Counted from the first letter of the stretch, positions 2,347-63,080 are shown. The stretch: DNA of 64,000 nucleotides from Escherichia coli (GCF_030384885.1 NZ_CP128613.1), one strand, 5' to 3'. Notes: generated from the sequence alone by a model not told the origin. Made by a program: numbers and translations.

Positions 2347-3397
2347 TCTCATACGGGATGGTGTTGCAGGCAGCGGCAACCTGTTCCAGCGTCTGGCCTG
2401 CGCCAATAAATTCCACCTTATCGCCCGCTGTCGGCGTGACGGCGCTGGCATCGACCATAAAGCTGTCCATACAAACCCGCCCCAATACCGGTAACCGCAC
2501 GCCGCGCCAGCATACGCCCGCCGGAGGACGCATATTTCGCGGAACGCCATCCGCGTAACCCGCGGATATCGTAGCGATACGCAGCGGACGCGTGGCGGTA
2601 ATCGTACTGCCATAGCCAACTGGCGTTCCCGCCGGGACATCCTGCACGCGCAGAATAGTTAGCGTCAGCGTAAAAGCCGGTTTTAGCGGCCTGGAAAACC
2701 ACGGCTGGGCGACGCCAAACAGCGCAATCCCCGGACGGCAGAGATCTTCCCGCCAACCTGGTTGCAAAAACATTCCGCAGGAGTTCGCCAGCGAAAATCG
2801 GCTGCTGGGGAAAACCGTTTTTGCCTGCTGGAATAGCGCGTGTTGCGCCACATTTAACGCATGATCCGGCCTGTCGGCGTTCGCCAGATGGCTGATGATA
2901 TAGTCCGGCGCAGGCCAGTTACGCTCACGAAATATCGCCGCCAGACGCATCAGTTGTTGCGGCATCACGCCCAGCCGCGACATACCGGAATCGAGCTGGA
3001 TCATCACCGCACGCCGCTGCTGGCGCGTTTCCAGTAACGTAAGCCACGCCATCACCTGGTCAATGGAATTGAGCAATGGCGTGATCTGCTGCGCGTAACA
3101 ATACGCCATCGCCTCCGGCATAACCCCATTAAGCACTACCACCATCGCATCAGTGGGCAGGATTTTACGCAGCGCCACGCCCTCCGAAAGCTGTGCCACA
3201 AAAAAGATCCGGCAGTTCGCCGCATACAGGGCGGGCGCAATCGCCTCCGCCCCCAGACCATAGGCATTGGCTTTCAACACCGCGCCACATTGCGCAGGGG
3301 CAACATGGCGCGCCAGCGTGCGATAATTATCGACGATGGCGGCGAGATTGACGCACATAACGCCGCACGCCGCCTGGATTTCAGTAGAAGTCATCAT
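2291..3397 (-). CDS. alanine racemase family protein (PLP-dependent)
   Basis: 368-aa ORF with PLP-lysine motif VLKANAYGLG typical of alanine racemases; start overlaps the stop of the upstream SHMT-like gene. Confidence 0.7.
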   Translation of the reverse strand: MMTSTEIQAACGVMCVNLAAIVDNYRTLARHVAPAQCGAVLKANAYGLGAEAIAPALYAANCRIFFVAQLSEGVALRKILPTDAMVVVLNGVMPEAMAYCYAQQITPLLNSIDQVMAWLTLLETRQQRRAVMIQLDSGMSRLGVMPQQLMRLAAIFRERNWPAPDYIISHLANADRPDHALNVAQHALFQQAKTVFPSSRFSLANSCGMFLQPGWREDLCRPGIALFGVAQPWFSRPLKPAFTLTLTILRVQDVPAGTPVGYGSTITATRPLRIATISAGYADGVPRNMRPPAGVCWRGVRLPVLGRVCMDSFMVDASAVTPTAGDKVEFIGAGQTLEQVAAACNTIPYEIMTRLGARFQCIMQPADA

Positions 3398-4632
3398 TGA
3401 TAAGACAACGGGTAGCGGTTGGTTAGTTGTATTACTTTTTGCTCAATATCGGCGCAAATGCCTGCGATATCTGACGAGTTGATGGCGAAAATGATTTCAC
3501 TTATCCAGTCAGCAATAAGCACAAAATCATCCGCCTTCATCCCACGCGTGGTGCAGGCCGCGCTGCCAATACGGACCCCGGAGGTAATCGACGGCGGCTG
3601 CGGATCGCCCGGCAGGGTGTTTTTATTGACCGTGATCCCCGCCAGTTCGAGAAAGTACTCCACCTGTGCGCCGGTTAACCCCTGCGGGCGCAGGTCGATA
3701 ATCCCCAGATGGCAGTCGGTGCCGCCCGTTAACAGCGTCAGACCGCGCTGCGCCAGTTGCTGGCACATCGCCTGCGCATTGTCGATAACCTACCCGGCGT
3801 AACGTTTAAATTCTGGTTGTAATGCCTCGCCAAGCGCCACCGCTTTCGCCGCGATAACGTGCATCAACGGCCCGCCCTGCAAACCGGGAAAGATGGCGCT
3901 GTCGATTTTTTTCGCAAGCCTGGCGTCATTGGTGAGGATCATGCCGCCGCGCGGCCCGCGCAACGTTTTATGCGTGGTGGTGGTGACCACATCAGCATAC
4001 GCCAGCGGCGAAGGAAAACAGCCGCCCGCCACCAGCCCGGCAAAGTGCGCCATATCCACCAGCAAAATGGCATCAACGGCATCGGCAATGCGGCGAAAAC
4101 GGGCAAAATCATAGTGGCGTGGATAAGCCGATCCTCCGGCAATAATTAACCGTGGGCGCTCGCGTAGCGCGATCATCTCGACCTCATCCATATCAATCAG
4201 GCCACTATGGGCATCGACGCCATAGTGAAAGGCGTTAAACCATTTGCCGGATTGATTGACCGGAGAACCGTGCGTGAGATGCCCGCCGCATTGCAGGCTC
4301 ATGCCAAGAATTTTGTCGCCGGGCTTCAGCAACGCCAGATAGACCGCCTGATTCGCCTGGCTGCCGGAGTGAGGCTGCACATTGACGTAACGCGCGCCAA
4401 AGAGCTGCTGCGCGCGGGTTATCGCCAGCATCTCAACCTCATCAATAAACTTACAGCCGCCGTAATAGCGATGCTGGTAATAACCTTCGGCGTATTTATT
4501 GGTTAACACCGACCCCTGCGCCGCGAGAACGGCGGGGCTTACGAAATTCTCCGAGGCAATCAGTTCCAGCGACTGCTGCTGGCGCTGTTGCTCCTGGTTA
4601 ATCAATGCAAAAAGTGGATCGTTATTTATCAT
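3394..4632 (-). pseudogene. serine hydroxymethyltransferase (GlyA-like) paralog interrupted by an in-frame TAG at 3790-3792
   Basis: ORFs 3790..4698 and 3394..3768 are in the same frame; both halves align to SHMT ([17 protein letters not shown]-lysine motif; GITVNKN); the stop sits where GlyA has a Gln in the YQQQV region. Confidence 0.65.
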
Positions 4633-4864
4633 GCGCTTCCCCCGCAAATTCATCATGCGATGATTTTCGCAGGGAAAACCTCGTCCGCACCCTGCCACTT
4701 TTTAGACTGAGCGCAGACCACCTATGTCGTTTTACTTAAAAGAAGAGGGAAGAAGGCTCCAGGCATCTCCATATGCGATTCTGGTTGGTAATACATCATA
4801 TTCCAGCTGCTCTTATCCGCCTACGTTATTGCATATACGGATAAGGCAGCCTCAATACGTACTT

Positions 4865-6430
4865 TTACTTGATATCTTTCACGCGCATACCGTTGATCTG
4901 TTCATCCGTGATGGTATTACCCGCTTTAAAGTAATCAACCACCGCGTGATAAACGTAATAACCGCCCGTCGTATTGCGCGCTTTACCCTCGGTAAACGCG
5001 GTAAAACCATCTCCACCATCAGCAAGGAAACTCTGAGTGGCAATGTGGTAAACCGTCGCATCTTCAATCGGTTCGCCATTCAGAGTCAGCGAGATAACCC
5101 GCTGACCAACCGGCTTGCTGCTGTCGTACTTCATTTCCAGGCCTTTCGATACCTGTAAAACGCCATTACTTAAACTTGCGCCGTGTTCCATCAAACTGCG
5201 TAATTGTTTACCCGTGAGTTCCATCGTCACCAGTTCGTTGGGGAACGGGAAGGTACTGATGACGCCACCCATCGTAATTGCACCCGCCGGGATCTCATTG
5301 CGGATACCGCCAGAGTTGGTTAACGCCAACTGGGTATTTTTACCCGCCGCTGCCAGCAAAGCGTCCGCCGCCAGATTCCCGAGAGAAGCCGATTCACCAT
5401 AGGCACGTTTCAATTCAACTGGCGATTGCGCCACCGTTTGCTGCACGACTTCATCCAGCTTTTTATTCCAACTATCAATCACCTGTTTTGTTTGCGGATC
5501 GGGCTTCCACTCGTCGGCGTAAAGGGTTTTAAGCTCGAAGTTTTTCACCGTAAAAGTGTGCGGCTTCTCTTTGTAGTCTAGAACCAGTTTACCCACATCA
5601 ATCCCGCCGCTGTCAGTGGAGAGGATTAACGTATTGCCGACTTTAATCGGTTCCGGCGTACCCACATGTGCATGCCCGGTGATCAAAATATCCAGCCCTT
5701 TCACCTGACTTGCCGTCTGAATATCTTTATCCAGTGCGCGGCGCACATCTGTGCCCCCCATACTGGACTGGCGGGCCGGAACACCTTCGTGAATCAGCGC
5801 AACGGTCAAATCAACCTTGCCTTTGAGTTCATCGATATAACGTTGTAGCCATTTAATTTCATCACGCGCCTCAATACCCACTCGCGTTGCCGCAGATACC
5901 GTATCATTAAAGGCAAATACACCGTGCAAACCAATCACGCCAATTTTCACGCCGTCTTTTTCAATGATGGTATAGGGCTTATCCCAGAATGATTTACTGC
6001 TGTTCTGATAAAAAACATTACCCTGCACAATCGGGAATTTTGCCTGACTCAACTGTAATAACGTATTGTCCCAGCCGTGATCAAATTCATGATTACCTAT
6101 AGTGGCCGCATCGAACGGCATGGTATTCATAATATCGATAATCGCCTTGCCTTTAGTCAGGCTGCTAATATACGGCCCGGTAAAATAGTCACCCGCATCA
6201 AAAAACCAGGTCGCTTTGTTTTTAGCTTTTTCTTGTTTAACAAGCGTAGTGATATTTGCCCAGCCGCCAATATCTCGTTTACCGTCAGCAATCCACGGCA
6301 CTTTATAAGGCTCTACATGTGCATGGAGGTCGTTGGTATAAATGATGGTGACATCTTTGGCGCAAGCCCAAAACGGCAGTGTTAATGCGATACCCGCAGC
6401 AAGCATTTTAATTTTCATAAACAATCCCAT
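4865..6430 (-). CDS. secreted bifunctional metallophosphatase / 5'-nucleotidase (UshA family), paralog 1
   Basis: 521-aa ORF; signal-peptide-like N-terminus; metallophosphatase motifs [23 protein letters not shown]; C-terminal 5'-nucleotidase domain. Confidence 0.8.
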
Positions 6431-6477
6431 CCAGTGAGATAAAGGATTGCTACATTACGTTCTGAAAGGCTTTTTTA

Positions 6478-6493
6478 TGTGAGAATACTCACA
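6478..6493. promoter_or_regulatory. perfect consensus CRP-type site TGTGA-N6-TCACA in divergent promoter region
   Basis: sequence TGTGAGAATACTCACA read directly between the divergent nucleotidase gene (4865..6430) and the zinc-ribbon gene (6551..7678). Confidence 0.4.
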
Positions 6494-6550
6494 TCCAGAG
6501 GCGATAACTGTAGGACAAAATCAACGACCTTATGAAATCGTTGGTGATAT

Positions 6551-7678
6551 ATGTCAAATCTGTTTGCGATTAATGTCTGTAAAACGTTCGGTTGTCGAAA
6601 TTTGGGATTGGCCTCATCGGAAGATTACAGTTGGCCAGACTATAAACTGGGTTTTCCGGCACTGCACTGCCAGGCATGCGGAAGTTACCCCCCTTTGTTT
6701 GATGAACAACAATTTCGTGACTGGTTGTCAGTTCACATGACTGCGTGTGCCATAGAAACAGGGCATTTTTGTCCATCATGCTATTGTAAAGAAAAGATTT
6801 TTTATGGCCACAACCCGCAGGGAACACAACGCGTTCAATGCCGTTCATGCAAAAAAGTCTGGACTCCGAAACAGCAGCCAGCAAGAGAAATTACGTATCC
6901 CCAGTCCATTGAAACCGTTCAACTGTTCATGCCCTTTCAAGGAGCCAGCGCAGTACAAAAGCTCTATGTTTTAGTCAGTCTTGACGCCACTCGTGGCAAC
7001 ATCCTTCATCTCTCCACGAATTATACGCAACATCAGACAGGAGACAGTCTGCGGTACAGTTACAGAGGCAATACAGAACCAACTGAGCACCATAGCGATA
7101 TTGCGCAGAGGGTAGATATGCGTGAAGCACAATTCTTGCGCCGGAGCCAGTTCGATGAAATTCAGTATGGCAGTGCTGTGCTCAAGCGCAACGGCAAGGG
7201 AGCCATACTACGCCCGGTTATCACGGCACACGGGCATTTCAGAATACTGAAAATCCGCTTTCCACATGTCAAAACGCATATCATTTCACACGAATGTTTT
7301 CTGAGAGGCGCAATTATTACAGCCTGGGCAGATCAGTTCCGCCAACAACAAGGCGAACTTTGGTTCGTAGAGGAAGAAATCAGCGACCGTAATGCTGATA
7401 TTCCCTGGCATTTTCAGGGAACGACATACCATGGTTGGTGGCAAAATCAGTGGCAACGCTGGGGGCAGGGGAATAACAGCAAGATGGTCTGCCTGCTCAC
7501 AGGAGTCTCCTTAGAAAGGGGCGCAAATGTTTCTCTGGCAACCAGTCGTTGCTTTATCACATGGCTGACAGACCAACACGACTTTACCCAAAGCGCGTTA
7601 TTATCCGCAGGTCGCGTAACGAAAATGCTGACCTCACTGGCGTTAAAATACAATGAATCGCTCACTCCATCTTGTTAG
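6551..7678 (+). CDS. hypothetical protein with N-terminal Cys-rich zinc-ribbon (IS1 InsA-like / transposase-type zinc finger)
   Basis: 375-aa ORF; Cys pattern CPSCYC...QRVQCRSCKKVW resembles InsA-type zinc ribbons; the rest has no motif I recognise. Confidence 0.45.
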   Translation: MSNLFAINVCKTFGCRNLGLASSEDYSWPDYKLGFPALHCQACGSYPPLFDEQQFRDWLSVHMTACAIETGHFCPSCYCKEKIFYGHNPQGTQRVQCRSCKKVWTPKQQPAREITYPQSIETVQLFMPFQGASAVQKLYVLVSLDATRGNILHLSTNYTQHQTGDSLRYSYRGNTEPTEHHSDIAQRVDMREAQFLRRSQFDEIQYGSAVLKRNGKGAILRPVITAHGHFRILKIRFPHVKTHIISHECFLRGAIITAWADQFRQQQGELWFVEEEISDRNADIPWHFQGTTYHGWWQNQWQRWGQGNNSKMVCLLTGVSLERGANVSLATSRCFITWLTDQHDFTQSALLSAGRVTKMLTSLALKYNESLTPSC

Positions 7679-7907
7679 TCAATACACTCGACAAACGACC
7701 ATAAATTAATGGGATCACTATTTCTCATTTAATTAAATATATGAATGTATGACTGAAAAATATAATCACAGTCAATGTTTAATTAATAACATTATTTGTT
7801 ACTAAGATCACATAATACTTTCCTGACCTATGTTTACATAAAAATAAGACACGGTGTTCCTTTTATTTAAATAATTCAACCAATGTAACAACCCCTATCA
7901 AGGAGGG

Positions 7908-9461
7908 ATGATGAGAACTGTATTTACGACTTTATCAGTCATATTCAGCGTGATGTTTTCTCACAGTATACTAGCTCAGGACGTTACTATTTATTATACG
8001 AATGATATTCACGCACATGTCAATCCGGCAAAAATTCCCGCTGTTGATAAGAACAGACTTGTAGGTGGTATGGCTAATATTGCAGGCATCGTTAATGAAG
8101 CGAAGAAAAAAAACAAAGATGTCTTTTTCTTTGATGCAGGCGACTATTTTACCGGTCCGTATATCAGTACCCTGACCAAAGGTGAAGCTATTATTGATAT
8201 CATGAACACCATGCCCTTTGATGCGGTGTCCGTTGGTAATCACGAGTTCGATCACGGCGTGCCCAATATGGTATCTCAGTTATCAAAAGCAAAATTCCCC
8301 ATTCTGCTGGGAAATATTTACTACACCGATACAAATAAACCAGTTTGGGATCATCCGTGGACCATTATCGAAAAAGATGGTTTAAAGATTGGTGTGATTG
8401 GATTGCATGGTGCATTCGCTTTCTATGATACAGTCGCGGCAAAAGCACGTGAAGGCGTAGAAGCCAGAGACGAAATTAAATATTTAAATAAAGCACTTGC
8501 AGAATTAAAAGGTAAAGTCGACATTACCGTTTTGCTAATTCACGAAGGTGTTCCGGCGCGTCAATCAAGCTTTGGTAGTAAAGATGTGGAGCGGCTACTA
8601 CAGGCAGATATTGAGACAGCTAAAAAAGTGAATGGTGTTGATGTCTTAATTACCGGTCACGCACATGTCGGAACACCGCAACCAATAAAAGTTAATAACA
8701 CATTAATTGTATCTACCGATGCATACGGCACCGACATCGGAAAACTTGTGCTTGATTACAATCCGAAAACAAAGAAAATTGATAGTTATAATGGTGAGTT
8801 AATCACCATCTTTGCAGATCAATTTAAACCTGACACCATCGTTCAAAATACTATCGATAAATGGAGCATAAAGCTTAACAAAATAACACAGGAAGTTGTC
8901 GGCCATTCTCCCGTAGTTTTAACACGTGAGTATGGCAGTTCTTCTTCTACCGGTAACCTTATTCTAGATGCAATGATGGAAAAAACACCTGATGCCATTG
9001 CCGGATTTCAAAATAGCGGTGGGATGCGAGCTGATTTTCCTAAAGGTGATATCACACTGGGAGATGTTATTAGCACATTCCCCTTTAATAATGACCTCAT
9101 CGAGATGGATTTGACGGGCCGCGATCTCAAATCATTGATGACGCATGCAACCAATCTAACTAACGGTGTGTTACAGGTTTCAAAAAGCGTTGCGGTTGTC
9201 TATGACAGCAAAAAACCACTCAACCAACGGTTAATCTCTTTCACCATTAACGGCAAACCCGTGGAAGATAATCAAACATATCGTATTGCCACGCACTCCT
9301 TTTGTGCCAGTGGTGGTGACGGTTTTGAAGCATTTTTGAATGGAAAAAATGTGAAGACGATACCGGGAACAACCTCGGCGGAATCTATCATCGATTATTT
9401 CAAAAATCATAAACCTGTCACCCCAGACTTAACTAAACGAGTCATGGACGTCGCCAAATAA
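7908..9461 (+). CDS. secreted bifunctional metallophosphatase / 5'-nucleotidase (UshA family), paralog 2
   Basis: 517-aa ORF; signal peptide; same metallophosphatase motifs as paralog 1 ([23 protein letters not shown]). Confidence 0.8.
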   Translation: MMRTVFTTLSVIFSVMFSHSILAQDVTIYYTNDIHAHVNPAKIPAVDKNRLVGGMANIAGIVNEAKKKNKDVFFFDAGDYFTGPYISTLTKGEAIIDIMNTMPFDAVSVGNHEFDHGVPNMVSQLSKAKFPILLGNIYYTDTNKPVWDHPWTIIEKDGLKIGVIGLHGAFAFYDTVAAKAREGVEARDEIKYLNKALAELKGKVDITVLLIHEGVPARQSSFGSKDVERLLQADIETAKKVNGVDVLITGHAHVGTPQPIKVNNTLIVSTDAYGTDIGKLVLDYNPKTKKIDSYNGELITIFADQFKPDTIVQNTIDKWSIKLNKITQEVVGHSPVVLTREYGSSSSTGNLILDAMMEKTPDAIAGFQNSGGMRADFPKGDITLGDVISTFPFNNDLIEMDLTGRDLKSLMTHATNLTNGVLQVSKSVAVVYDSKKPLNQRLISFTINGKPVEDNQTYRIATHSFCASGGDGFEAFLNGKNVKTIPGTTSAESIIDYFKNHKPVTPDLTKRVMDVAK

Positions 9462-9495: not shown

Positions 9496-11121
9496 ATGCG
9501 AATGAAAACAGTGCAGCGTACTTTACTTGCCGCAACATTGCTGACTATTTTTTCGGTCTCGGTCATGGCGCAGGATGTCACGATTATTTATACAAATGAT
9601 CTTCACGCTCATGTGGATTCTTATAAAGTGCCGTATATCGCAGACGGAAAACGCGACATTGGCGGCTTTGCCAATATATCTACTTTAGTAAAACAAGAGA
9701 AAGCGAAAAATAAAGCCACCTTTTATTTTGATGCTGGAGACTATTTCACCGGCCCTTATATCAGCAGTCTGACAAAGGGCGAAGCAATAATTGACATTAT
9801 GAATACCATGCCTTTTGACGCAGTATCAATCGGTAATCATGAGTTTGACCATGGCTGGGATAATGCCCTGCGACAATTAAGCAAAGCGAATTTTCCTGTT
9901 TTATTGGGCAATGTTTATCATAAAGAGAGTGAAAAACCCTTCTGGAACAAGCCCTACACCATCCTGGAAAAAGATGGCATCAAGATTGGTATTATTGGGC
10001 TACACGGCGTATTTGCATTTAATGATACGGTCTCGGAGCTCTCTCTCCAGGGACTCGATAATGACAATAATAACCGCTTTGATAAATCTTCCGAGACCCT
10101 TAAGAATCAGGGGATTGAAGCACGTGATGAAGTGAAGTATTTGCAGCATTATATCGACGAGTTACGTGATAAGGTTGACCTCACTGTGGCGCTGGTTCAT
10201 GAAGGCGTTCCGGCGCGTCAGTCCAGCATTGGCAATACAGATGTTAGACGCGCTCTTGATAAAGATATTCAAACCGCTAGCAAGGTGAAAGGATTGGATA
10301 TTCTGATTACCGGGCATGCCCACGTCGGAACGCCAGAACCAATCAAAGTCGGCAACACCTTAATCCTTTCGACTGATAGTGGCGGTATCGATATTGGTAA
10401 ATTAGTCCTTGATGTCAACCCTACAGCTCGTACCCATAAAATGAAGAGCTTTGAGCTGAAAACAGTTTATGCCGATGAATGGATACCCGATCCAACGACA
10501 CAAAAAGTTATCAATGGCTGGAATAAAAAACTGGCGGATATTGTACGCCAACCAGTGGGTGAATCATCGATTGCATTAACTCGCGCCTATGGTGAGTCAT
10601 CGCAACTAGGCAACCTGTTTACCGATGCAATGCTTGTCGCTGCTCCGACTGCACAGATTGCATTGATAAACTCCGGCAGCTTACGTGCGGATATAAATGC
10701 AGGCACGATTACCTTTGGCGACATTACCAGTACATTCCCCTTCAAGAATGAACTTACTGAAATGGATCTCAGCGGTAAGGATCTGCGTAACCTACTGGAA
10801 CACGGGGCATCGCTTACCAATGGCATCCTGCAAATGTCAAAAGGCGCAGAAATGCGCTATACCCCGCAGAAACCAGTAGGTCAGCGCATAGTATCTTTTA
10901 AAATTAATGGTGAAGAGATCGTTGATACGAATATTTACCATGTTGCAACAACGACTTTCCTTGCACTGGGGGGCGATGGTTTTCTGGCATTCAAAGAAGG
11001 GAAAAATGTTCAGGTCCGCGCCGGAAAAAACATGTCCGATGTCGTGATCGATTATTTGAAGAAAGGCCACAAGATTACGCCTGCACAGGTAAATGAAATG
11101 CGGGTGGACGTTAGCAAATAA
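9496..11121 (+). CDS. secreted bifunctional metallophosphatase / 5'-nucleotidase (UshA family), paralog 3
   Basis: 541-aa ORF, closely similar to paralog 1 by eye, with a short inserted segment (LQGLDNDNNNRFDKSSETLKNQG). Confidence 0.8.
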   Translation: MRMKTVQRTLLAATLLTIFSVSVMAQDVTIIYTNDLHAHVDSYKVPYIADGKRDIGGFANISTLVKQEKAKNKATFYFDAGDYFTGPYISSLTKGEAIIDIMNTMPFDAVSIGNHEFDHGWDNALRQLSKANFPVLLGNVYHKESEKPFWNKPYTILEKDGIKIGIIGLHGVFAFNDTVSELSLQGLDNDNNNRFDKSSETLKNQGIEARDEVKYLQHYIDELRDKVDLTVALVHEGVPARQSSIGNTDVRRALDKDIQTASKVKGLDILITGHAHVGTPEPIKVGNTLILSTDSGGIDIGKLVLDVNPTARTHKMKSFELKTVYADEWIPDPTTQKVINGWNKKLADIVRQPVGESSIALTRAYGESSQLGNLFTDAMLVAAPTAQIALINSGSLRADINAGTITFGDITSTFPFKNELTEMDLSGKDLRNLLEHGASLTNGILQMSKGAEMRYTPQKPVGQRIVSFKINGEEIVDTNIYHVATTTFLALGGDGFLAFKEGKNVQVRAGKNMSDVVIDYLKKGHKITPAQVNEMRVDVSK

Positions 11122-11198: not shown

Positions 11199-12059
11199 AT
11201 GTGTATAAAAAAGCACGGGATAGCTTTATCGATTCTATTAATACCTTGCATTGGAAACGCTCAGAAAATTAAAAGTGAGGAAGGCTGGTTACATCAAAGC
11301 TTGAATGTCATTGGTCGCACAGACTCTCGCTTTGGCCCAAGGCTGACTAACGACCTCTACCCTGAATATACTGTAGCAGGAAGAAAAGACTGGTTTGATT
11401 TTTATGGTTATGTTGATCTACCAAAATTCTTTGGCGTCGGCAGTCACTATGATGTTGGGATCTGGGATGAGGGCTCACCACTATTTACGGAAATAGAACC
11501 TCGGTTTTCCATTGACAAATTGACCGGATTAAATCTTGCGTTCGGCCCTTTTAAAGAATGGTTCATTGCAAACAACTATGTCTATGATATGGGTGACAAC
11601 CAGTCATCCCGGCAAAGTACATGGTATATGGGGCTTGGTACAGATATCGACACGGGTCTACCAATTAAGCTTTCTGCCAATATATACGCCAAGTATCAGT
11701 GGCAAAACTATGGTGCCGCTAATGAAAATGAATGGGACGGATATCGATTCAAAATAAAATATAGCATTCCTCTTACCCATTTATTCGGAGGGCGATTGGT
11801 ATACAATAGTTTTACTAACTTTGATTTTGGATCCGATCTTGCGGACAAATCACACAATAATAAACGAACCAGTAATGCTATTGCTTCAAGCCATATCCTT
11901 TCCCTGCTATATGAACACTGGAAATTTGCATTTACACTACGTTATTTTCACAACGGTGGACAATGGAATGCTGGGGAGAAAGTTAACTTCGGAGATGGTC
12001 CATTTGAATTAAAAAACACAGGATGGGGAACCTATACTACTATTGGTTATCAATTTTAA
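11199..12059 (+). CDS. nucleoside-specific outer-membrane channel, Tsx family (paralog of tsx)
   Basis: 286-aa ORF with signal peptide; long conserved blocks shared with Tsx ([15 protein letters not shown]; [26 protein letters not shown]); ends in aromatic residue typical of beta-barrels. Confidence 0.85.
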
Positions 12060-62243: not shown

Positions 62244-63080
62244 TTAATTATGAATCAAACGCTGCGGATGGGTATAAACCGTTGCCCGACCCGGCTTACA
62301 AAAGCCCACCAGCGTCAAATTACAGCGCTCAGCCACTTCTACGGCAAGCGTGGTCGCGGCAGACACCGCAAACAAAATTTCTACGCCGCACATCGCTGAC
62401 TTTTGCACCATTTCATAACTGGCACGACTGGAAACCAGCACCGCACCTTGATGCCAGCTTTCCCCTTCTTGTGACCGGCGGCCTAACAGTTTATCCAGCG
62501 CCACATGGCGACCCACGTCTTCATGCCCGCCTACCAGTTCGCCAGATGGCAACATCCAGGCAGCGGCGTGAGTACAACCAGTCAGTTGCCCCACTGGCTG
62601 GAAATCATTGAGATGGCGTAATGCATCATCCAGTTTGTTGAGATCAAATGTCTGAGTGAACGGCAGCGGCTGCACCGGTTTACCGATGTCATTAAGTTGC
62701 TCCACGCCGCACACGCCACATCCCGTACGTCCCGCCAGTGCCCGACGACGCTCCTTCAACCCCATAAAGCGGCGGCTGGAAAGCTCAATTTGCACTTCCA
62801 GACCATTACAGGAAGGAACGACATCCATGCCAAAGATATCGCGCGGACTTTCGATAATCCCCTCGGAAAGCGAAAAACCGAGCGCAAAGTATTCAAGGTC
62901 TTTGGGCGACGCCATCATCACCACATGCGAAATGCCGTTGTAGACCAGCGCAACGGGAACCTCTTCCGCCACCTCATCTAACCGTGGGTGTTGTAAATCG
63001 TCACGCCGCCATAACTCAATTTGACGAACACCTGTGACATTTGTCACATTTTTGATTTCTTTTTGCTGTGTTTTTTTCAC
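62244..63080 (-). CDS. fdhD: formate dehydrogenase accessory sulfurtransferase FdhD
   Basis: 278-aa ORF recognised as FdhD. Confidence 0.95.

Follow-up and report, generated by a model that had tools for sequence, protein, structure and literature searches.

Within a stretch of Escherichia coli DNA of 64,000 nucleotides (GCF_030384885.1, NZ_CP128613.1; hereafter the window), the genes nuc1 (minus strand, start at 6418) and zrp (plus strand, start at 6551) diverge from a 132-bp gap, in which a palindrome at 6478–6493 carries the consensus motif of the cyclic AMP (cAMP) receptor protein CRP. nuc1 encodes a 5′-nucleotidase and zrp a protein with zinc ribbons, and the dyad of the palindrome lies between their start codons, 67.5 bp from that of nuc1 and 65.5 bp from that of zrp (Table 1). 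The original prediction, made from the sequence, was right in setting the palindrome between divergent genes and the zrp start at 6551, but it put the nucleotidase start at about 6430. The start at 6418 is that of the RefSeq annotation and the one kept in other species, and the ATG at 6430 is private to this allele. This study concerns the palindrome (the CRP box), the two promoters that it probably serves, and the nucleotide scavenging genes around them.

Results

The Palindrome at 6478–6493

The window reads TGTGAGAATACTCACA at these positions, with both pentamers exact, just as had been claimed, and the palindrome around it is longer than the motif, in a 7+4+7 arrangement (ATGTGAG-AATA-CTCACAT). 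The CRP motif is a 16-bp, two-fold symmetric TGTGA-N6-TCACA core (Shimada et al., PMC3105977). Measured against 100 dinucleotide-preserving shuffles of the window, from which all chance expectations were taken, the exact motif is rare: there are two matches in the window compared with a mean of 0.10, and one shuffle in 100 reaches two. With ≤1 mismatch there are seven matches, against 1.77 expected, and none of the 100 shuffles reaches seven. From the shuffle rate, a perfect box would fall in a 132-bp region by chance about 2 times in 10,000.

The matrix scan for CRP that had been proposed as a check was run with a position weight matrix (PWM), and the box scores 11.25 bits, ranking 9 of 63,979 positions. 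This is inside the range of correctly aligned training sites (7.0–17.4 bits) and comparable with the rhaT-sodA and rhaBAD sites of the same window (11.2 and 13.3 bits, respectively). Three one-mismatch matches also lie in gaps, upstream of kdgT, between the divergent sodA and rhaT, and between rhaS and rhaB, the last of which we take to be the published rhaBAD CRP site. The other perfect box, TGTGACATTTGTCACA at 63033–63048, is in the divergent gap between fdhD and fdoG (the formate dehydrogenase α-subunit gene), a CRP target in K-12 by genomic systematic evolution of ligands by exponential enrichment (SELEX) (Shimada et al., PMC3105977). In view of these other matches, the pattern tends to mark real regulatory regions in the window. 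A literature search returned no paper containing the window's box, its reverse complement, or four other allele or species forms of it. As regards a terminator or RNA function, no T-run adjoins the palindrome, and Rfam gave nothing above noise (one match, E = 6).

Conservation of the Box across Enterobacterial Genera

Homologues of Zrp were collected across Enterobacteriaceae, and a scan of one genome per species gave 37 loci, 33 of which have divergent nuc1 and zrp neighbours, 131–138 bp apart. These 33 intergenic sequences are all distinct and come from about 15 enterobacterial genera, among them Escherichia, Citrobacter, Klebsiella, Enterobacter, Kluyvera, Phytobacter, Kosakonia, Pluralibacter, Pseudocitrobacter, Silvania, and Superficieibacter, together with one Rahnella-labelled record. 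Across genera, protein identity is 87–98% for nuc1 and only 48–80% for Zrp. A box aligned with 6478–6493 is present in all 33 regions, at 64–66 bp from the zrp start, or at 72 bp in Klebsiella, in which a 6-bp insertion lies beside the start codon.

The pattern of conservation within the box follows the motif. Majority-base identity over the 33 regions is 0.97 for the 10 core columns (7 of them invariant), 0.62 for the 6 spacer columns, and 0.82 for the remaining region; TCACA is invariant in 33 of 33, and the spacers vary by lineage (GAATAC, GAGTAA, GAGAAA, GTCTGC, GAAAAC, GAGTGT, GAGCAT, and others). When a 5-6-5 mask is slid along the alignment, the contrast between core and spacer is maximal exactly at 6478, and ten random columns equal the conservation of the core in 0.2% of draws (p = 0.002). 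Fixed pentamers with a free spacer point to a dimeric protein that reads two pentamers, which in enterobacteria is CRP. In E. coli itself, the 40-bp box segment of the common allele is present at ≥80% identity in 1,752 genomes; 107 of them are in the 80–90% band, which probably includes the window's own allele, and the differences among four E. coli alleles inspected are outside the cores.

The proposal that the island is wired into catabolite control needs adjusting in one respect, namely that the nuc1-zrp module has its box also in Citrobacter, Klebsiella, Enterobacter, Kluyvera, Phytobacter, and others. The module therefore likely carried a CRP box before it was acquired by E. coli.

Predicted Promoter Geometry on Both Sides of the Box

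A −10-like hexamer lies at a fixed distance on either side of the box, with zero alignment gaps between the box and either hexamer in the 33 loci. On the zrp side, the hexamer is CAAAAT in most of the loci, CAGAAT in three, and TAACAT in one. With a discriminator of 6–7 nt, zrp transcription is predicted to start at about 6527–6528, which would put the box at −41.5 or −42.5. On the nuc1 side, the predicted start is at about 6444–6446, and the box would be at −40.5 or −41.5. Both predicted leaders are about 24–27 nt long. A consensus scan found no complete σ70 promoter in 6300–6700, as expected, since the promoters would be activator dependent.

CRP activates from about −40.5 and −60.5 (PMC12825309), and the positions of CRP sites known to activate show peaks about every 10 bp, beginning at −40 (PMC3105977). 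A Class I geometry (−61.5) was rejected: the transcription starts would fall 4–6 nt from the start codons, leaving no leader and clashing with the conserved ribosome-binding regions. Other candidate −10 elements (AGCAAT on the nuc1 side, TAACTG or TAGGAC on the zrp side) were set aside, being poorly conserved or placing CRP at −46.5 or −31.5, as was a small upstream open reading frame of 13 codons from 6532, which is out of frame with zrp and whose ATG is not conserved. For the leader RNAs, the folds do not surpass those of shuffled sequence (z from −1.4 to +0.9).

Distant zrp-Family Loci and a Natural Deletion

Relatives of Zrp are few, with 137 found by a profile search among 1.84 billion cluster representatives, and genomic context was located for eight distant groups, with Zrp identities of 22–42% (loci are denoted by L and a number). 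The neighbour of zrp is a 5′-nucleotidase gene in several, divergent in L034, L042, L048, and L049 and in the same direction in L051. In others it is a divergent set of genes, for a NupC-type transporter and a nucleoside phosphorylase (L043, L044), for a DeoB-like mutase, a phosphorylase, and a NupG-like symporter (L047), or for a porin, a class B acid phosphatase, and a class II cyclic-nucleotide phosphodiesterase (L045, L046), and in L050 it is a Tsx channel gene with sulfatase and radical-SAM maturase genes in the same direction.

A CRP-like box with ≤1 mismatch is present in the promoter region of all eight loci that were scanned whole (L042, L043, L045, and L047–L051), and seven of the eight have no other such box within the locus of 3–11 kb. 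The box is 66–79 bp from the zrp start in L042, L043, L045, L048, and L049, and 74 bp from it in L034, a paralogue of 38% identity from the species scan. The box of L047, which is perfect, is not near zrp but 69 bp from the deoB-like gene that diverges from it. L050 and L051, in which zrp is read in the same direction as the partner genes upstream of it, have the box ahead of the operon's first gene, by 69 and 92 bp, respectively. Furthermore, −10-like hexamers, read by eye, are found 30–35 nt from the dyad in L042 (CAATAT), L034 (CAATAT), L048 (CAGAGT), and L043 (TACTAT), and on the nucleotidase side of L048 (41% identity) GACAAT, likewise read by eye, lies 29–34 nt from the dyad. Judged by this comparison, the box-promoter architecture is older than the nuc1-zrp module itself.

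In Salmonella enterica subsp. arizonae (L036, 5922–6010), a deletion has taken about 126 codons of zrp along with its leader and −10 hexamer, ending 6–9 bp to the right of the box (the alignment fixes the endpoint no closer). The box, still perfect (TGTGAGAATCCTCACA), is kept, as are the whole nuc1 side of the region and nuc1 itself, at full length and 91% identity. This deletion fits, as weak evidence, a box that would serve nuc1 independently of Zrp. E. coli IH5 (L052, NZ_CP168949.1, 5050205–5056239) has a zrp fragment amid truncated unrelated genes (casA, acfD, capsid genes, aadA5); its apparent breakpoint beside the box is probably a misassembly and was not used.

Other Conserved Blocks in the Gap

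Two further blocks stand out in the gap (Table 1). The block TTACGTTCTGAAAG is not conserved in the 41%-identity paralogue L048. It overlaps CTGAAAGG (6462–6469), which is the inverted repeat of CCCTTTCAG beside the nuc1 ribosome-binding site, giving an 8-bp inverted repeat CCTTTCAG..CTGAAAGG with arms 27 bp apart; in this window the left arm is degenerate, with two substitutions (CCATCCAG, 6427–6434). At the predicted zrp start, AAATCGTTGGT (6535–6545), inside the repeat CAACGA-N10-TCGTTG, is invariant in all 33 loci, stricter than the CRP box, and repeats at the same position with altered sequence are found in L042, L048, and L034 (TCGACTGA..TCAGTTGG or TCTGTTGG) and in L043 (CAACT..AGTTG). 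The left arm of this repeat would not be transcribed if the start falls as predicted, its RNA fold is no better than shuffled (z = −1.1), and it matches no Rfam family, so that a protein operator is the better guess for CAACGA-N10-TCGTTG.

Table 1. Features of the gap between nuc1 and zrp and of its surroundings, in positions of the window
Feature	Position	Strand	Remarks
CRP box TGTGAGAATACTCACA	6478..6493	.	dyad between 6485/6486; 22-bp site 6475–6496
Candidate zrp −10, CAAAAT	6516..6521	+	31–36 nt from dyad, 33/33 loci without indels
Candidate nuc1 −10, TAATGT (family TAAnGT)	6452..6457	−	29–34 nt from dyad; T, A, and final T kept in nearly all 33
Block TTACGTTCTGAAAG	6455..6468	.	between box and nuc1 −10; nearly invariant in 33 loci
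Inverted repeat CAACGA-N10-TCGTTG	6522–6543 (block 6522..6546)	.	spans predicted zrp transcription start
nuc1	4865..6418	−	517-aa 5′-nucleotidase, UshA superfamily; Pfam Metallophos + 5_nucleotid_C; RefSeq
zrp	6551..7678	+	375-aa "cytoplasmic protein"; N-terminal Cys-rich zinc ribbons, C-terminal RNase H-like fold
Second CRP-like box TGTTACTAAGATCACA	7797..7812	.	one mismatch; 106 bp upstream of nuc2; PWM 14.97 bits, rank 3 in window
nuc2	7911–9461	+	scavenging island
nuc3	9502–11121	+	scavenging island
tsx-like nucleoside channel gene	11199–12059	+	scavenging island
Hypothetical gene, MocR-like gene, alanine racemase gene, broken serine hydroxymethyltransferase (SHMT) gene	upstream of nuc1	mixed	

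The Zrp Protein

Zrp matches no Pfam family, and NCBIfam gives a weak match to the N-terminus of the IS1 transposase; 18 of 64 Zrp relatives match Zn_ribbon_InsA. An AlphaFold2 model built on a 64-sequence alignment that includes distant relatives has a predicted local distance difference test score (pLDDT) of 93 and a predicted template modelling score (pTM) of 0.93; an alignment of 15 sequences had given a pLDDT of only 36. A sequence search of the PDB returned compositional zinc-finger matches only. IS1 InsA and the DDE transposases and integrases are relatives of Zrp but, unlike these mobile elements, zrp is single-copy and in a fixed neighbourhood, with the same neighbours across genera. 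No terminal repeats were seen at zrp, and the conserved Zrp residues show no evident canonical DDE triad, as judged from conservation without superposition. Together, these features make Zrp look like a domesticated transposase-like protein and not a mobile element. Its persistent linkage to scavenging genes suggests that Zrp is a dedicated regulator; the same-direction arrangements would also allow an enzymatic or other role.

The metF-metL Island

The module is part of an accessory island inserted between metF and metL and absent from K-12. The region is present in 1,844 of 5,426 complete E. coli genomes (about a third), extraintestinal and avian pathogenic strains (ExPEC and APEC) included, and takes three forms: a minimal nuc1-zrp pair (as in ZH063), the pair with nuc2-nuc3-tsx, and the longer form of this window. 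Its G+C content is 40–46% over about 6–12 kb (most of nuc1 to tsx), compared with 52–60% in the flanks, and across the island the window is 100% identical to strain 2013C-4282. The same island is GR31 in a 2026 paper on strain BEN2908, which describes three UshA-like nucleotidases and a Tsx homologue and does not treat their regulation (PMC12928451). By our own reading of the nuc1 product, an N-terminal signal-peptide-like sequence would make it periplasmic.

The second CRP-like box, at 7797, has a −10-like TACATA about 33 bp downstream, and nuc2-nuc3-tsx may have its own CRP-dependent promoter there. Only close E. coli alleles were compared at this box; it is identical in L041, an E. coli allele of 88% identity, a comparison too close to inform. 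The box is absent from loci in which nuc2 follows nuc1. Some strains carry two paralogous nuc1-zrp modules each, namely E. coli SCPM-O-B-8794 (L013/L007), Escherichia sp. MOD1-EC7003 (L031/L006), and Citrobacter sp. wls619 (L035/L021), and in the second module type it is nuc1, and not zrp, that is followed on its own strand by nuc2, tsx, and nuc3.

Elsewhere in the window, the SHMT paralogue at 3394–4698 is a pseudogene with an internal stop, and together with the alanine racemase and MocR-like regulator genes it shares a segment of 52–60% G+C that is absent from the common E. coli island forms. Downstream of metJ the window is about 4.4 kb shorter than NZ_CP027579.1, as inferred from the offset of the rha sites, and there that record holds an ISAs1 transposase, a group II intron, and an RHS element.

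Discussion

A Probable Shared CRP Box between Two Promoters

We consider it likely, with a probability of about 0.72, that one cAMP-CRP dimer activates the divergent nuc1 and zrp promoters in a Class II manner. A perfect consensus box would be bound by cAMP-CRP in any enterobacterium, and binding at 6478–6493 is very probable. That the box acts on both promoters has slightly better than even odds. When glucose is scarce and cAMP rises, CRP would occupy 6478–6493 and, at about −41.5 in both directions, would recruit RNA polymerase to two weak promoters without −35 elements, thus activating rather than repressing them. The leftward promoter would serve nuc1 and its presumably periplasmic 5′-nucleotidase, the rightward promoter would serve zrp, and the box at 7797 may likewise serve nuc2-nuc3-tsx. 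The outcome would be that extracellular nucleotide scavenging is turned on under catabolite derepression, and through the other conserved blocks of the gap a further, specific regulator probably acts in addition to CRP. Such control would fit the known range of CRP, whose targets include the periplasmic nucleotide phosphatase genes cpdB and aphA as well as tsx, udp, cdd, deo, nupC, and nupG. The use of a single CRP site for both of two divergent promoters is documented for 11 pairs in K-12 (PMC3105977).

Several points weigh against this interpretation. The transcription starts are predictions and form the weakest link of the argument: the −10 hexamers were picked by eye and are weak (CAAAAT has 4 of 6 matches, TAATGT 3 of 6), and on the nuc1 side the box comes to −40.5, or with another discriminator length even to −39.5, a borderline position for a Class II site. 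The matrix behind the 11.25-bit score is crude, having been trained on 18 sites. Conservation is high over the intergenic region as a whole (0.82), which makes the box one of several footprints. TGTGA is intact except in one clade, with TGCGA in Enterobacter, TGTGC or CGTGC in Pluralibacter and Silvania, and TGGGG in the Rahnella-labelled record. Finally, polymerases on both Class II promoters at the same time would be difficult, because their footprints would overlap, and CRP might favour one direction or create competition between nuc1 and zrp, effects known from engineered bidirectional promoters (PMC12825309). The TGCGA half-sites (L010, L012, L029, and L030, the Enterobacter clade) presumably resemble half of the Sxy-dependent CRP-S motif, and the zrp start codon at these loci is apparently TTG, not ATG.

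Alternative Explanations

The box could be a genuine CRP site that serves one promoter, most likely that of zrp, with nuc1 independent of CRP or even hindered by CRP or the recruited polymerase. Engineered bidirectional promoters are activated by CRP in one direction and blocked in the other (PMC12825309), and the nuc1 −10 matches the consensus poorly. In addition, in L043 and L045, which have long gaps, the box is 70–79 bp from the zrp start compared with 376–908 bp from the divergent gene, a constancy that ties it to zrp. Against this, the nuc1 start is 65–69 bp from the dyad without indels in all 33 short gaps, with the −10-like hexamer at its fixed place; L048 has GACAAT in the nuc1 −10 position; the box of L047 is next to the deoB-like gene and away from zrp; and in S. 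arizonae a perfect box persists with nuc1 after the loss of the zrp promoter. We therefore regard service to a single promoter as unlikely. That the palindrome is mainly the operator of another protein, for which Zrp with its InsA-type DNA-binding zinc ribbon is the obvious candidate, would explain why box and zrp-family genes co-occur across distant loci; Zn_ribbon_InsA matches among the relatives, a fold like that of DNA-binding transposases, and a G after TGTGA that is nearly invariant although the CRP consensus does not need it point the same way. However, the conserved bases are exactly the CRP contact pentamers with a free spacer, the box is still perfect where zrp is truncated (S. arizonae), it precedes the first gene of the operon where zrp comes after its partners, and the CAAC..GTTG repeat over the zrp transcription start is a better-placed operator candidate. 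Together, these observations make a Zrp operator at the box improbable.

The original prediction suggested that the island may be under catabolite control, after the example of nucleoside scavenging genes controlled by CRP and CytR. The CRP part is well supported by the conserved cores, the fixed geometry, and the boxes at distant loci; the CytR part, in which CytR would repress until cytidine or adenosine is present, is very improbable. The genes around the box are for the scavenging of nucleosides or nucleotides, and the targets of CytR include tsx, cdd, udp, deo, and nupG (PMC3454398); the periplasmic phosphatase gene aphA is reported in a preprint to be inhibited by CytR (bioRxiv 2023.12.05.570089). 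A CytR cassette, however, has two CRP sites 10–40 bp apart that flank half-operators of the TGCAA/TTGCA type (PMC3454398), and the window's intergenic region has only one CRP box at ≤2 mismatches; the next PWM match (6543–6558, 10.2 bits) overlaps the zrp start codon at a distance of 49 bp from the box and is not conserved. The search for CytR sites that had been called for gave no TGCAA, TTGCA, or octamer GTTGCATT in this region. In the orthologues, half-sites occur as 16 scattered single matches in 12 of the 33 regions, with none in E. coli alleles and none paired, and the lone TTGCA of some Citrobacter and Klebsiella sequences is unpaired and not conserved in E. coli. It had also been pointed out that cytR is encoded in the window; the gene is probably present, about 28 kb from the box in a co-linear record (which has about 4.4 kb that the window lacks), but it belongs to the core genome, and its position shows no link to the island.

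Least probable of all is a chance palindrome or a similar motif of another factor, such as the DeoR operator. This operator, which we take to be TGTTAGAA-TTCTAACA, is matched by the present allele at 13 of 16 positions, and the nucleoside context fits. Nevertheless, the central AGAA-TTCT positions that DeoR would need vary in the orthologues (GAGTAA, GTCTGC, GAAAAC, GAGCAT) while TGTGA/TCACA is fixed, and position 4 of the palindrome is always G in the orthologues, not T; the DeoR operator was rejected on account of this varying spacer. Chance alone, at the low rate per 132-bp region given above, is set against a box that recurs in at least 33 loci.

Implications

If the proposed activation of both promoters by one CRP dimer is true, the metF-metL island would be a catabolite-controlled harvest of extracellular nucleotides, and the gap would illustrate cleanly, in a natural setting, how one CRP dimer can stand midway between two Class II promoters. 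The finding is useful but unsurprising, because nucleoside genes are classic CRP targets.

The Zrp family is a more original lead than the box itself. It is conserved and unannotated, with nucleotidase, Tsx, NupC/NupG, phosphorylase, or phosphatase genes as neighbours in nearly every locus examined, and a CRP-like box always lies near zrp-family genes in these loci; the regulator hypothesis is directly testable. We put forward, as a tentative and on balance doubtful proposal, that these proteins are an unrecognised family of transposase-derived regulators or sensors of nucleoside and nucleotide scavenging operons in γ-proteobacteria. Each would be expressed from a CRP Class II promoter and would bind the CAAC..GTTG repeat over its own start, and perhaps CCTTTCAG..CTGAAAGG at nuc1, so as to form with the CRP dimer a two-input divergent switch.

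Comparison with Known Systems

The box is a new, unstudied case within a well-known class. El-Robh and Busby (2002) reportedly made a model study of one CRP site shared by divergent promoters, and the nearest known natural case of a back-to-back Class II arrangement is malX-malI. malI-malXY has been classed as using different CRP molecules (Shimada et al., PMC3105977). The K-12 pairs with a shared site, such as rhaT-sodA (which lies in this same window), araBAD-araC, xylAB-xylFGHR, and glpEGR-glpD (PMC3105977), likewise have one box in a short divergent gap. Unlike in those pairs, the box here is almost exactly central, at a predicted −41.5 or so on both sides, and both promoters would be Class II, in a tight back-to-back arrangement.

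At the level of the single promoter, the closest likeness is to Class II promoters such as galP1 and the synthetic CC(−41.5), which likewise have the box over the −35 region, a weak −10, no recognisable −35, and an invariant distance from box to −10; in contrast to these, the starts at nuc1 and zrp are predicted, and the two promoters would compete for one dimer and for overlapping DNA. In function, the locus resembles the CytR/CRP promoters deoP2, cddP, udpP, tsxP2, and nupG, in that nucleoside or nucleotide scavenging would be under catabolite control. Unlike those promoters, which combine CRP with CytR, the nuc1-zrp gap has neither a second CRP site nor CytR half-operators, and instead it has its own conserved blocks and its own divergent putative regulator.

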